From NCBI GenBank assembly GCA_964354495.1, contig CAYHAA010000034.1:1-10947 (forward strand): DNA of 10,947 bases, in the 5' to 3' direction. Numbering within the stretch: the first letter of the stretch is position 1; each line of letters opens with the position of its first letter. Source of the DNA: an uncultured archaeon. Its GTDB lineage: Archaea; Asgardarchaeota; Thorarchaeia; Thorarchaeales; Thorarchaeaceae. Both the position numbers and the translations under genes were made by a program. Positions 6,131 through 9,737 of this stretch are shown piece after piece. The notes below the pieces were generated by a model. The model was not told the DNA's origin. It worked only from the letters and a program-made list of their open reading frames with translations, and did no database searches.

Positions 6131-6355
6131 TCACGCTGTAACGACCTCTGCGACTAGTTCTTCATCACGAAGCTTGACCAAATGGTTGAGCTCAAGATCC
6201 CTCTTTGAAAAAGCGATAACCTCAATGCCGCAGATGTGTCCACTGGAACTATAATCAACAATAACCCCTGCTCCTATCTCGATACTCTCTACTACCTCTG
6301 CTCCTCTGAATCTGAAATAAATAGAATCTGTAACCTTATTGTATTCTACTTGCAT
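6131..6355 (-). CDS. DUF2283-family protein (putative antitoxin), no adjacent toxin
   Basis: 74 aa with the pattern YNKVTDSIYFRF...VESIE...GVIVDY...GHICGIEV. GGTGA SD-like motif just upstream. Confidence 0.85.
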   Translation of the reverse strand: MQVEYNKVTDSIYFRFRGAEVVESIEIGAGVIVDYSSSGHICGIEVIAFSKRDLELNHLVKLRDEELVAEVVTA

Positions 6356-6411
6356 TCTTATTCACCAATCATTATCCCCAACATCACCAACTGCCCTTGA
6401 TTGACCATTAT

Positions 6412-6437
6412 CAGATTTGCGCTCATTCGCCAATCTG
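6412..6437. promoter_or_regulatory. Conserved inverted repeat/hairpin in the DUF2283 leader (copy A)
   Basis: CAGATT-t-GCG-ctcatt-CGC-c-AATCTG. The sister copy at 9441-9466 shows a compensatory change. Confidence 0.55.
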
Positions 6438-6524
6438 CTCTCCTATTGTCATACTAGGAAATTGATATTGGTGGCTAAATCCAATTGGAAGAATAGGAAC
6501 ACCTTGTCTCGAATTGATCGTGAG

Positions 6525-6531
6525 AATTATA
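6525..6531 (-). promoter_or_regulatory. Possible TATA box with purine-rich upstream (BRE-like) sequence
   Basis: Minus strand AAGAGATGGAGATATAATTCTC. GATATAATTCTC is also conserved in block B (9545-9551). Confidence 0.3.
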
Positions 6532-6758
6532 TCTCCATCTCTTGTAGATGAGACAGTAGTATCCTGCATGTGCAAAGAATACCTTTGAATATGAAGAGTG
6601 AATCATGAAAGAGATGTGATTCATCTTCTTTCGTATTCAAACCTAGAGTCCCTCCATATCCGTAATTGAACCAGCCAGACTCCATGAACCCTCCAGTTAT
6701 CGAGAAATCACGTACCACCTCACACTAATCAGTCTGTCTGTTTTAGAGAAAGGCTAGG

Positions 6759-6777
6759 GAGAGGATATGAACCTCTC
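6759..6777 (-). terminator. Terminator-like hairpin just after the R2-frame stop
   Basis: GAGAGG-7nt-CCTCTC, 4 nt beyond the TAA (6782-6784) closing the R2 frame, followed by a pyrimidine-rich tract on the minus strand. Confidence 0.45.
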
Positions 6778-6796
6778 TCGATTAGGCTCTCAGAAC

Positions 6797-6862
6797 CTGC
6801 ATCTGCTTCTCTTGGCGATGCGGCGAATGATCTATTCCAAAGATCATACGAGCCATGAGGAT
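6797..6862 (-). repeat. R2: degenerate copy of the ACAD 3' end
   Basis: Minus frame ILMARMIFGIDHSPHRQEKQM vs IVMGREIFGPEYLPYRQEKQM. 41/63 nt ungapped; 6800-6819 matches 9672-9691 at 19/20. The stop position reads CAG instead of TAG. Confidence 0.85.
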
Positions 6863-6866
6863 TGCT

Positions 6867-7295
6867 TCACCTGTTGGCTGCAAACACCTGGTTTCCACGC
6901 ACCGCTCCGTGAAGGACATAGTTGATCAGACCTCCAAAAGCGAGTAGCAAAAGAAAAATAGCTAAATCCGGGCTTGACGCTCTAAAGAGAACTGTGTCGA
7001 GGTCATACTCGGTAGGAGGTATTATGTTGACGAAACTGATGATTCCCCCCGCAAGAGAACTCAGAATGAGTATCAATATCGAAAGATACCTTAGTCTTAT
7101 TGCTCCTTTTTCAGTGAGTCTTGAGTCTTTCGGAAATCCCTGGCCAGTTATTTGTTGATTCGTCTTCAACAGCCAGAGCTGCATTGACGAATACGCGAAA
7201 CCGAACAATGATAAGAACCCTACACCAGCAAGGAACCATGTCACCACAAACAGCTCGACATCACTCAACATGTGTGTAGCCTCCCACGAATCCAT
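6867..7295 (-). CDS. Hypothetical membrane protein (~3 TM helices), 142 aa
   Basis: Three hydrophobic stretches (FVVTWFLAGVGFLSLFGFAY; LSILILILSSLAGGIISFVNII; LAIFLLLLAFGGLINYVL). No family recognised. Confidence 0.75.
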   Translation of the reverse strand: MDSWEATHMLSDVELFVVTWFLAGVGFLSLFGFAYSSMQLWLLKTNQQITGQGFPKDSRLTEKGAIRLRYLSILILILSSLAGGIISFVNIIPPTEYDLDTVLFRASSPDLAIFLLLLAFGGLINYVLHGAVRGNQVFAANR

Positions 7296-7330
7296 CTTGC
7301 ATCAGAATGTGGTGTCTTTTCAATATGCCG

Positions 7331-7436: not shown

Positions 7437-7538
7437 CTCTACTGAACGGAATGCTAATATTCTAGGCTTAATCACCGTTGGGCAGCATCCTTGACGTGTC
7501 CAGTGGATGCGTGCTATTGAACTGGGGCGGTCATACGA

Positions 7539-8569
7539 ATGTCTTCTTCGAAGGTTTTGGGATACGCAGCAAGAGCAGTGGGACAGCCGCTCGAGCCATT
7601 CACCTTTGCGCCGCCCAGACTGGGGAAGCATGATGTCCGGGTCTCAGTTACGCACTGCGGTCTGTGCCATACTGATATCCACGCCATCGATAACTACTAC
7701 GGTATAACCACCTATCCTTTTGTCCCCGGTCACGAGATAGTTGGATACGTGTCAGATGTAGGCGGCGCAGTATCCGGCATAAAGGAAGGGGACCGGGTCG
7801 GCATCGGCTGGCAAGGCCGTTCTTGCATGAAGTGTGAGTGGTGCTTGCAGGGCGAAGAGCAGCTGTGCCTAGACATTGTCTCTTCAGGAACGTGGGTTCC
7901 CTTTGGTGGCTTCTCATCCTCTGTCCTTGTGGATAGCCGCTTTGCCTATCCGCTTCCTGATACCATGCTCTCCGAGGTGGCCGCGGTGCTCATGTGCGCT
8001 GGAATCGCCGTCTACTCCCCGCTCCGATCGTACGCTAAGCGATCCGCGCAGAAGATTGGTATCATCGGCGTGGGAGGCCTGGGCCACCTCGCACTACAGT
8101 TCGCCCATGCCCTCGACTACGAAGTCACTGCAATTTCCTCTTCTCCAGAGAAGAAACGCAGACGCTTGCCTTCGGCGCAGACCACTTCCTCTCTTCAGAC
8201 GACGAGACCAGCTTGCGGCAAGCTGAGTTTGGCTTCGACCTGCTGCTATGTACCGCCAGCGGCAAGATTAACTGGGAGCCGTTGTTGAACACCTTGAAGA
8301 AAAATGGGAGGCTGGTCGTTGTTGGCTCCCCGGACGTGTCGTTCAATTCGACTGACCTCGTGGCACATCAACTATCGATCACTGGTTCTTTCGTCGGCAA
8401 TCGGGCCACTATGCGGGAGATGCTCTCGTTCGCACAGGAACTCGGCATCATGCCCAAGATGGAGTTGATGCCAATGACGGAGGTAAACAAAGCGATTCGG
8501 AAGGTGAAAGAGAACAAGGCGCGCTAACGAATCGTTCTATTCAGCGACATTGCAAATACAAGCAGATAG
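7539..8569 (+). pseudogene. Zn-dependent NAD(P)H alcohol dehydrogenase (MDR, cinnamyl-alcohol-dehydrogenase/Ahr-like), disrupted
   Basis: Motifs CGLCHTD, GHEIVG, C-x2-C-x2-C-x7-C and GVGGLG. A net 1-nt deletion near 8150-8170 shifts SPEKK out of frame with LAFGADHF. A TAA at 8525-8527 sits where Tyr is expected in KAR(Y)RIVL; the frame continues to TAG at 8567-8569. Confidence 0.88.
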
Positions 8570-8601
8570 TCAGGTCGGAACAATTCTTGTGCCATGATAA
8601 T
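8560..8601 (-). repeat. R4: degenerate copy of the ACAD 3' end
   Basis: Minus frame IIMAQELFRPDYLL vs IVMGREIFGPEYLP. 28/42 nt ungapped vs 9693-9734. Confidence 0.75.
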
Positions 8602-8636
8602 CTAGTGGAAGGAAAAATCGTATTTAGAATTCTGAA

Positions 8637-8831
8637 TTATCCATTGACATCCCTAGCTCCAACCACTGTGAGCCCAATCGGCTTGCCATCCTTGTACCTG
8701 ACAACAATGCCATTCGGTAGCATTTCGGAATCATCGGCTTCTTGTATTGGTCCAAAACTCACGTACACCACATCATTCTCTGAATCGTATTTAATGTTCA
8801 TGCTCTCCAGATCGACTACTATTTGGGCCAT
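8637..8831 (-). CDS. DUF2283-family protein (putative antitoxin of the upstream nuclease)
   Basis: IKYDSENDVVYVSF...GIVVRY.DGKPIGLTV pattern. The start overlaps the last 13 nt of the upstream toxin-like gene, suggesting translational coupling. Confidence 0.85.
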   Translation of the reverse strand: MAQIVVDLESMNIKYDSENDVVYVSFGPIQEADDSEMLPNGIVVRYKDGKPIGLTVVGARDVNG

Positions 8832-9178
8832 ATCACGCCTCTCCTCTTGAAGGAATCCGGTTTTGATGTGATGAAAAGTGTCTTTATGCTATTCCCTTCT
8901 ACGTAGAAAACTGCTAAAAACTTGTGTGTCCCTGCGATTTTCTTCATAGCCACTATTTCATTAGTATGTCCCTCTGCTAAAAAATCTGGACTTTCAATCG
9001 TTGCTTTGATATTAGCATAAAGGTCTGGAAGCTGCAAGACCTCAGGATGCCGTTCCTTGATATGTTTGACAGTTCTCGAATGTAGTATCACTGTGGTTCC
9101 AAAGACTGATGCACATGTAAGAATGACCCCTCCTTTTGGTATTATTCTCTTGTCTTTTCTTACCTTCATGATATCCAT
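8819..9178 (-). CDS. Putative BECR-fold (Barnase/EndoU/ColicinE5-D/RelE-like, PBECR-type) ribonuclease toxin
   Basis: HIKERHPE...TIESPD...KFLAVFY...IKTLFIT...RGVIWP resembles small toxins that typically precede DUF2283 genes. The family assignment is from pattern recognition only. Confidence 0.65.
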   Translation of the reverse strand: MDIMKVRKDKRIIPKGGVILTCASVFGTTVILHSRTVKHIKERHPEVLQLPDLYANIKATIESPDFLAEGHTNEIVAMKKIAGTHKFLAVFYVEGNSIKTLFITSKPDSFKRRGVIWPK

Positions 9179-9384
9179 CAGTCCTTGAGCAAGTTACGGA
9201 TATTATTCACAGATACAGGGTCACGATTCTTCTTCGAAAAAGCGAGAACCTCAATGCCGCAGATATCACCACTAGTACCATAATCGACAATGACTCCCTC
9301 TCCCTTCTCAACACTCTCCACTACCTCTGCTCCTCTAAATCGGAAATATATAGAATCTGCAACCTTATCATATTCTACCTGCAT
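9178..9384 (-). CDS. DUF2283-family protein, paralogue of 6131-6355 with a different C-terminus
   Basis: The first ~51 aa are closely similar to the 6131-6355 product and diverge after FSK. The stop overlaps the toxin start (TGATG). Confidence 0.8.
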   Translation of the reverse strand: MQVEYDKVADSIYFRFRGAEVVESVEKGEGVIVDYGTSGDICGIEVLAFSKKNRDPVSVNNIRNLLKD

Positions 9385-9617
9385 TCCTATTCACCAATCA
9401 TTATCCGCAATATCACTGACTGTTGTCGATTGACCATTATCAGATTTGCTCTCATCAGCTAATCTGCTTTCCCATTGTTATCCTAAGGGCTCGATGTTGG
9501 TGGCTGAATTGAAGAGGAACACCTTGTTTCGAATTGGATGCGAGAATTATATCCACATCTCTTTTCGATAAGACAATAATGTCCAGAGTGCGGAAAGAAT
9601 CTATATGAGTATGAAGA
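9231..9617 (-). repeat. Block B: duplicate of 6202-6597
   Basis: About 80% identity by hand alignment. The offset is 3029 then 3020 across a 9-bp indel. Confidence 0.95.
9441..9466. promoter_or_regulatory. Conserved inverted repeat/hairpin in the DUF2283 leader (copy B)
   Basis: CAGATT-t-GCT-ctcatc-AGC-t-AATCTG; a T-A pair replaces the G-C pair of copy A. Confidence 0.55.
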
Positions 9618-9632
9618 ATAGAAAAAGGAGAT

Positions 9633-9656
9633 AAAAGGGGACATAGACCCCCTTTT
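9633..9656 (-). terminator. Terminator-like hairpin downstream of ACAD
   Basis: AAAAGGGG-8nt-CCCCTTTT, 12 nt after the ACAD stop, followed by T-rich sequence on the minus strand. Confidence 0.7.
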
Positions 9657-9668
9657 TTGATATTAAGA

Positions 9669-9737
9669 CTACATTTGCTTCTCTTGGCGATAAGGTAGGT
9701 ATTCAGGTCCGAAAATTTCCCTGCCCATGACGATGCG
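9669..9737 (-). repeat. R0: live ACAD 3' end, the reference copy of the repeat family (putative attachment site)
   Basis: Encodes RIVMGREIFGPEYLPYRQEKQM* and aligns without gaps to R1-R4. Confidence 0.85.

Follow-up and report, generated by a model that had tools for sequence, protein, structure and literature searches.

The stretch of DNA considered here (the window) is the entire 10,947-bp contig C34 of an uncultured archaeon of the family Thorarchaeaceae (genome G000; 3.3 Mb, 51 contigs, 97.7% complete), and it carries two modules, A and B, each of which combines a block of about 400 bp with a gene of the DUF2283 family. We consider it probable that A and B are paralogous copies of one composite cassette, moved at repeats within a family-wide array in which each repeat unit copies the end of an acyl-CoA dehydrogenase (ACAD) gene; the larger array phenomenon is more unusual than the two-module finding itself. 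The relevant genes of the window all lie on the minus strand. The ACAD gene is intact (9669..10919, 416 aa; three ACAD Pfam domains, E 1e-30 to 2e-12) and has orthologues with 80-94% amino acid identity in 15 of the 24 same-genus genomes drawn. Its last ~25 codons, ..IVMGREIFGPEYLPYRQEKQM and the stop codon, form the gene-attached repeat unit R0 (9669..9745, minus strand; nhmmer E 1.6e-24), and two further units on the same strand are R3 (7341..7443; E 7e-25), with its own hairpin at 7331-7361 (-11.6 kcal/mol), and R2 (6797..6871; E 9e-24), in which the stop codon is changed to CAG. Repeat units were located by nhmmer, protein families by Pfam, NCBIfam and PADLOC, and hairpin energies were calculated with RNAfold.

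The block is a direct repeat (6192-6597 and 9221-9617) with 80% identity over 411 columns and one 9-nt indel, very much as a first-pass annotation of the sequence had estimated, and the DUF2283 gene that this annotation placed in each module is recovered by Pfam in both (E 1.9e-13 in A, 5.8e-14 in B). In module B the block starts 51 nt past the R0 stop codon, and in module A about 200 nt past R2; R2 and block A are not contiguous, being separated by ~200 nt of unrelated sequence and a different hairpin. The part upstream of the DUF2283 gene, referred to as the leader, occupies 9385..9617 in B and, by alignment with leader B, 6356..6597 in A (both minus strand; 78% identity). Leader B is composed of a zinc-ribbon fossil, a stretch of ~120 nt and a DUF2283 promoter region of ~100 nt. 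The fossil, at the start of the leader, is the 3' end of a convergent zinc-ribbon gene (CPECGKNLYEYEE and the stop codon; 9580..9621, plus strand; tblastn E 4e-8), in which 12 of 13 residues are identical to the end of an intact 100-aa gene in the relative G004 (L024:1331-1633; 77% nucleotide identity over 74 nt). The corresponding end in A reads YPACAKNTFEYEE and the stop codon (6560..6601, plus strand; tblastn E 3.6e-4 to the G004 gene), so that both copies carry CPECxKNLYEYEE and a stop, each after an identical upstream in-frame stop, and the window retains just the last 13 codons of the zinc-ribbon gene. Since A and B share the same remnant and the same in-frame stop, the junction would have formed once and been copied later. 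The order in which its parts came together is suggested by G004, with which the ACAD gene, R0, the G-rich hairpin and the next ~40 nt are collinear at 80.5% identity; there, those 40 nt are the end of the intact convergent gene, which is adjoined by a 117-aa paralogue, and DUF2283 is missing. The current ACAD tail therefore seems to have come with a zinc-ribbon cassette, the antitoxin cassette having been fused later, and not with the DUF2283 module as initially proposed.

To judge from these comparisons, what is called the leader marks an old junction, a fossil confined to this lineage. Among the 86 family genomes searched no second one has it in full, and partial matches are limited to two: G004 has the zinc-ribbon end, G075 the promoter part. 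This does not support the earlier idea that repeat tail, leader and DUF2283 gene together form a widely conserved element end. The ~100 nt before the DUF2283 start codon are common to DUF2283 cassettes of other genomes; a promoter-proximal motif, CAATAGGAAAGCAGATTAGC, recurs in the cassettes L064 and L033, and an inverted repeat, CAGATT-N12-AAATCTG, lies 5' of the gene (6398-6428 and 9427-9457, minus strand) and is conserved in A, B, L064 and the metagenome contig L065, and partly in L033. This region is probably the cassette's own promoter or operator. The middle stretch may include a decayed distal half-repeat (~9533-9585), a weak signal whose score is reached by 1-2% of shuffles. Hints of coding in the leader are the 9-nt indel and a codon-position bias of 12/8/3 in one third of it; codon periodicity of the A/B mismatches gave no convincing coding signal, and a small conserved open reading frame (ORF) considered for the leader was dropped, as the start codon proposed for it is not conserved and the bias over the whole leader is weak (22/15/12). 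Small zinc-ribbon proteins of the CxxC...CxxC type (100-117 aa), whose best match is a weak one to FmdB-type zinc ribbons, are also encoded by convergent cassettes directly behind repeat units at L024 1331-2019 (G004), L073 ~9340 (G004:C116) and C10 25902-26225 (G000).

By family membership, A and B are both toxin-antitoxin cassettes, A decayed and B with a swapped toxin, and it is a remnant of a DUF4258 gene in A that leads to this assignment. DUF2283-A (6131..6355, minus strand, 74 aa) has the usual ..LVKLRDEELVAEV.TA C-terminus and 72-81% amino acid identity to five metagenome homologues. It is followed by a truncated DUF4258 toxin gene (6073..6134, minus strand), of which the first ~20 codons remain before two stops; it reads VIVFTKHALERMRQCAITKEE where the intact paralogue on C8, another contig of G000, reads LIIFTKHALERMKQRAITRDE (DUF4258 E 4.3e-10), and then gives way to unrelated DNA. 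Module A matches the intact C8 pair at 71% over 283 nt (blastn), a match that spans the toxin remnant, and its homology to L064 stops at the same point as the remnant ends. Intact pairs of DUF2283 (74 aa) and DUF4258 (78-80 aa) genes occur at eight loci (C8, three genus genomes and four metagenome contigs), those on C8 with Pfam matches above cut-off; in seven of the eight a repeat unit lies within a few nt of the toxin stop, giving a cassette of ~0.7 kb where an upstream unit is present, and at the eighth, L066, only a faint half unit follows the toxin gene. Repeat units in the same orientation lie within 1.5 kb of every one of the 12 DUF2283 loci of this type.

In module B, the DUF2283 gene (9178..9384, minus strand, 68 aa) has a C-terminus of another type than that of A, and the homology between the two ends inside the gene at about codon 55. 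Its stop is overlapped by 1 nt by the start of a gene for a 119-aa candidate toxin (8819..9178, minus strand), which is PBECR3-like (BECR-fold nuclease) by a Pfam match below the 30-bit cut-off (PF18812, E 6.3e-6, 26.5 bits) and by its best ESM Atlas clusters, all of which are PBECR3 (score 0.92). A second DUF2283 gene (8637..8831, minus strand, 64 aa; E 1.6e-10) overlaps the toxin gene by 13 nt, and the PF10049 matches of all three DUF2283 proteins of the window exceed the 23-bit cut-off. Both modules resemble DUF2283/DUF4258 two-gene modules (PF10049, PF14076) in having two small overlapping genes with the antitoxin-like gene first; they differ in that A has lost its toxin and B pairs DUF2283 with the PBECR3-like protein and a second DUF2283. 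DUF4258 (PF14076) is related to the BrnT-type RNase toxins, and we found no paper that reports a test of a DUF2283/DUF4258 pair. Read in this way, the alignments indicate that the toxin gene of A was later truncated, leaving an orphan antitoxin, and that in B recombination at about codon 55 swapped in a new antitoxin C-terminus, the PBECR3-like toxin and the second DUF2283 gene. The genes behind A, which encode an SBBP-repeat protein and a 420-aa protein, are on this evidence not cargo of A. What had been taken for cargo entirely different from that of B opens with ~20 codons of the DUF4258 gene, and since a truncated toxin gene points to a deletion joint, the downstream genes are to be read as neighbouring cassettes and deletion products.

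A third copy of the composite is found on L065, a 1.2-kb metagenome contig. There, a gene homologous to the 420-aa one (3' end; 82% to window 1416-1601) is followed by a repeat, a G-rich hairpin, the leader and a DUF2283 gene. The L065 block is 85% identical to B, as is its leader, and 82% identical to A. A tree of the first 55 DUF2283 codons groups the three as (A,(B,L065)), with support of 95/92 and 86/84 and with L064 as the next branch out, so that, as far as the tree goes, a recent duplication within the genome is not the origin of A and B. The composite is known only from this genome, where it occurs twice, and from L065. Because the L065 block stands behind a different gene, it has changed neighbours at a repeat at least once; on L065 the repeat before the block follows the 420-aa homologue and not the ACAD gene, and a different small gene follows the DUF2283 gene. 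The proposal that A and B are two members of one family is borne out as regards common origin, seen in the same fossil junction and in the relocation on L065, but not as regards integrative elements with cargo of their own. In the model we favour, a single deletion or aberrant recombination would have joined two cassettes, a zinc-ribbon one situated immediately after the ACAD end and a DUF2283/DUF4258 one, leaving 13 zinc-ribbon codons, perhaps half a repeat, the antitoxin promoter and the antitoxin gene. Recombination at repeat units would then have copied or moved the composite, which is now in three places: behind the ACAD gene (B), deep in the same array (A) and behind a 420-aa gene in another organism (L065). 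Cassettes would be exchanged at the repeats with a preferred break just 5' of CAAGAGAAACAGATGTAG, and a break at this point means that the distal part of a repeat and its terminator go with the downstream DNA.

The repeats in question are widespread. Units were found in 26 of 28 genus genomes, with up to 25 per genome, and, across the order, in 54 of 87 genomes from 10 of 17 genera; none was found in the one genome of a second family that was searched. The 153 units collected are co-oriented on all contigs but one, and every one of them starts sharply at ATCGTCATGG, directly after unrelated cargo, and is a 66-nt direct copy of coding sequence (the last ~22 ACAD codons) followed by the stop codon and one of two hairpin types. 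An array of this kind follows each of the ACAD orthologues in G004, G006, G011, G013, G016 and G023, and units away from any ACAD gene are found in the closed genome G052 and on C8. The cargo is highly diverse and in both orientations, and the inter-unit segments of at least 200 nt (n=108) are mostly unrelated to each other; many cassettes are common to genomes at 92-99% identity, with non-homologous neighbours. Repeats of the same array are slightly more alike than those of different arrays (0.754 versus 0.73). We found no paper describing these arrays. Between ~82.4 and 118 kb of C8, six more co-oriented units or unit hairpins (at 82453, 87779, 98236, 107377, 108446 and 117832) stand roughly 1-10 kb apart among genes of ordinary appearance, for instance for a P-type ATPase, glycosyltransferases and a MaoC dehydratase (L001 is C8:102500-122176), and the final codons (..IEKQM) of a 75-aa ORF are supplied by one of the C8 units. 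A unit fragment is present on C42 (5533-5575). In G052, three units lie between nitroreductase, DUF362, prenyltransferase-like and ORFan cassettes (L098; G052:C1 3057000-3067000), with an SBBP-repeat protein gene just upstream and no ACAD gene nearby.

What travels with a cassette was addressed with 47 pairs of homologous inter-unit segments, each pair from different contigs. The 60 nt after the stop codon of the upstream unit have a mean similarity of 0.33 against a background of 0.16 (Mann-Whitney U test, p 3e-9, which overstates the case because the pairs are not independent), whereas the post-stop part of the downstream unit (0.12) is not co-inherited with the cargo and the proximal 43 columns of either flanking repeat are at background. 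By this comparison, the distal part of a repeat and the terminator are linked to the cargo downstream of them. In two recent exchanges (cargo identity 98.7% and 94%), identity begins, as judged by eye, exactly at CAAGAGAAACAG of the upstream repeat and fades at the first bases of the next one. Of ten half repeats that are proximal-only, eight, including both examples of the window, end at model columns 43-50. One of these (8561..8601, minus strand) covers nhmmer model positions 3-43 and is weak alone (E 1.5e-4). The other, at 1160..1300 (minus strand), is the oldest and longest ACAD-end remnant, ends at column 46 and matches residues ~351-407 of ACAD with gaps (~55 codons; six orthologues, tblastn E 1e-4 to 2e-5; also found by nhmmer). 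It adjoins a hydrolase gene, an arrangement that fits an ancestral ACAD-hydrolase neighbourhood split by the array. That gene is of the alpha/beta hydrolase type (BD-FAE; 3-1091, minus strand), and the remnant reaches its start.

The hairpins behind the repeats of the window are of two classes. Class II, behind R0 (9633..9656, minus strand; -11.4 kcal/mol), begins 12 nt past the stop codon, consists of a G-rich stem and a T-run and is terminator-like; the same type lies behind the ACAD stop codon in G004, G006, G007 and G023 and behind the L065 repeat. Class I, behind R2 (6757..6779, minus strand; -17.6 kcal/mol), has the sequence CGAGAGAGG-TTCATAT-CCTCTC. Each repeat is thus followed by a hairpin as had been described, but the two differ in class and in their distance to the block. 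A degenerate hairpin in module A (6603..6632, minus strand; -11.9 kcal/mol) aligns with the place of the class II hairpin in B; no repeat unit is detectable upstream of it, and a decayed repeat at this point was discarded as its local score of 32 does not rise above shuffles (mean 37.5). Other origins were considered for class I: a tRNA T-arm or att fragment is not supported, as ARAGORN detects no tRNA on C8 or anywhere in the window and Rfam returns only a sub-threshold MicX match; nor is it a genome-wide repetitive extragenic palindromic (REP)-like element, since with its left context it is found only beside repeat units, on C34 and C8. A motif, AGACTGATTAGT, is found in three cassettes that are not related to each other (window 6640-6745, L029 ~1310-1330 and L021 of G006), each time ~20-25 nt past a class I hairpin.

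The R0 alignments took in 46 other units and later 88 other full-length repeats. The distal 20-mer of R0 matches R2 at 19 of 20 positions and R3 at 16 of 20, as the first-pass annotation had counted. The agreement with R2 is more than the family consensus (ACAGGCAAGAGAAACAGATG), since most repeats score 14-16 and 19/20 is reached by just 3 of the 88; the three other repeats at this score are two of G000 and that of L065. Over the whole 66 nt, R2 is 73% identical to R0 (rank 54 of 88), and in the proximal part 51%.

One rival reading would be an old local duplication, in which unequal crossing-over between units gave A and B and the two diverged in place, with no movement between cells or arrays. 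Both copies are indeed in one array and in the same orientation, their 80% identity is close to that by which ACAD genes differ from species to species in the genus, the 85 other family genomes searched lack the full leader, and the slightly greater likeness of same-array repeats would follow. We nevertheless regard it as unlikely, since B is nearer to L065, which comes from another sample, than to A, the L065 block behind the 420-aa homologue means that the order was altered at a repeat at least once, and the many cassettes common to genomes at 92-99% have non-homologous neighbours. Less probable still, and in our view improbable, is that two members of an integrative element family, each with repeat tail, leader and DUF2283 gene as a shared, conserved end and with exchangeable cargo of its own, entered the 3' end of the ACAD gene on separate occasions. 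The distal 20-mer common to R0, R2 and the L065 repeat, the general inheritance of the distal repeat and hairpin with downstream DNA, and the other downstream genes of the L065 block agree with it. However, no integrase was found in the window or G000 by Pfam searches; R2 is ~200 nt from block A and has a different hairpin, and no repeat stands by A's own hairpin; R0, its hairpin and the zinc-ribbon remnant are ancestral, being common to G004, which has no DUF2283 there; the presumed cargo of A opens with a truncated toxin gene, that is, with a deletion joint; elsewhere the DUF2283 pair is a complete 0.7-kb cassette on its own; and an end made of tail, leader and DUF2283 with varied multi-gene cargo and a distal boundary occurs in none of the family genomes searched.

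How cassettes would be moved at the repeats is a more evenly balanced matter. Ordinary homologous recombination, with the 66-nt repeats as arms for double-crossover cassette replacement and no dedicated enzyme, is a serious possibility that we place somewhat short of even. It agrees with the failure to find a recombinase and with the shared blocks of the two recent exchanges, which end inside or at the edges of both flanking repeats, and the apparent left edge coincides with the 5' limit of the longest invariant stretch, in which a crossover would leave no trace. It fits less well with the half repeats, which, joined to unrelated DNA at columns 43-50 in eight of ten cases, are illegitimate joints at a fixed place, with the sharp left border that all units share, and with the repeats being just 73-84% alike over 66 nt, which makes them a poor substrate. 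We lean slightly towards a site-specific activity in trans that has escaped recognition. The fuller form of this idea is an integron-like system of a new kind, in which an ACAD-end site is cut at one fixed point just 5' of CAAGAGAAACAGATGTAG by an unrecognised enzyme acting in trans, toxin-antitoxin cassettes act as stabilisers and A, B and L065 are traces of mobility; we put it forward tentatively, as one possibility.

A recombinase linked to the repeats is not recognisable. G000 has no match to PF00589, PF01867 or PF01797, which is to say that no Pfam tyrosine recombinase (even Xer-type), Cas1 or Y1 transposase is detected. The searches gave 16 TnpB-type matches and, as recombinases, just two small serine enzymes (201 aa; on C22 and C24), neither of them near a repeat unit. 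None of 20 tyrosine recombinase genes of the genus has a unit within 1.5 kb. A recombinase 5' of the ACAD gene can be dismissed: the genes there differ from one genome to another and are of ordinary kinds (epimerase, GNAT, methyltransferase, aconitase/IPMDH and Rce1-like). The 420-aa ORF (1405-2667) is no better a candidate, as it has no Pfam, NCBIfam or PADLOC match and what recurs of it is limited to the C-terminal 150 aa (5 of 27 genus genomes). A target-duplication mechanism of the CRISPR or casposon kind was also rejected, since adjacent units (0.761) are no more alike than non-adjacent units of the same array (0.750, p 0.2) and G000 lacks Cas1.

Besides these results on recombinases and on the upstream genes, several observations weigh against the favoured model. 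In two of four recent pairs the left edge is at or past the hairpin. A single fixed crossover should make the proximal half of the next repeat travel with the cassette, and this half is not clearly co-travelling (79-88% in four pairs, the background being 73±10%). The possible half-repeat of the leader is a weak signal, since 1-2% of shuffles score as high. The R0-R2 match may come from gene conversion within the lineage, two of the 19/20 matches being G000 repeats and the third that of L065. Finally, A, B and L065 could be explained by old duplication and vertical descent, because identities of 80-85% are at the level of species divergence.

The remaining cassettes of the window are a single-gene cassette with a 142-aa membrane ORF (6867..7295, minus strand; from the ORF list), which has no match in Pfam, PADLOC or NCBIfam, and a Zn-type alcohol dehydrogenase cassette (7539..8527, plus strand; Pfam ADH_N E 7.6e-27). 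The latter is a pseudogene with a frameshift near 8147-8168, which aligns by tblastn in two pieces and in different frames (82% and 76% amino acid identity) with an intact 340-aa gene of the G004 array; the cassette is common to both arrays at 80% nucleotide identity over 1146 nt. Joining the end of C8 to the start of the window was considered and rejected, as the ~100 C-terminal residues missing from the hydrolase exceed the ~200 nt after the ATPase gene on C8.

To our knowledge, bacterial integrons are the only gene-cassette arrays for the storage and shuffling of accessory genes that are known in detail. In the sedentary chromosomal integrons of Vibrio, promoter-bearing toxin-antitoxin cassettes are believed to make the loss of cassettes costly (Richard et al. 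2024, PMC13108822). By analogy, A and B may be self-promoted type II toxin-antitoxin cassettes that penalise the loss of array segments. The ACAD-end arrays share with the Vibrio integrons long co-oriented series of short repeated sites between very diverse small cassettes, anchoring at one conserved platform, and the recurrence of self-promoted toxin-antitoxin cassettes. They differ in that no IntI or other tyrosine recombinase is nearby, the neighbours of the ACAD gene being metabolic genes; the site is a direct copy of a protein-gene end and terminator, not an attC palindrome; cargo is in both orientations; and some arrays, in G052 and on C8, are not beside an ACAD gene. The 66-nt unit has no internal palindrome and is followed by a short hairpin of variable loop and stem, so that nothing attC-like was seen, no attC model having been run. 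Archaeal elements that integrate in the 3'-distal parts of protein genes, with tandem re-use of one site, are known from a 2019 study (PMC6563490); these elements, kilobases in length, each bring an integrase or casposase of their own, and their att sites or target duplications mostly measure less than 25 bp (PMC6563490). Here, too, the target is the 3' end of a protein gene, which is kept intact, and displaced ends persist as direct repeats, but there are dozens of integrase-less segments of 0.05-13 kb, separated by units of ~110 nt. A tip-swapping array in the style of polymorphic toxins does not apply, as each unit ends in its own stop codon and terminator and no in-frame alternative C-terminal domains are present.

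Here, in Asgard archaea, a comparable array rests on a site of another kind, the end of a protein gene, and no recombinase is visible. Modules A and B are the clearest internal evidence of cassette movement and decay in it, with one junction in three contexts, a truncated toxin and a toxin swap. The breakpoint 5' of CAAGAGAA, if real, would give the search for an enzyme a concrete site, and would suggest that genes spread by an as yet unexplored route among the closest prokaryotic relatives of eukaryotes.

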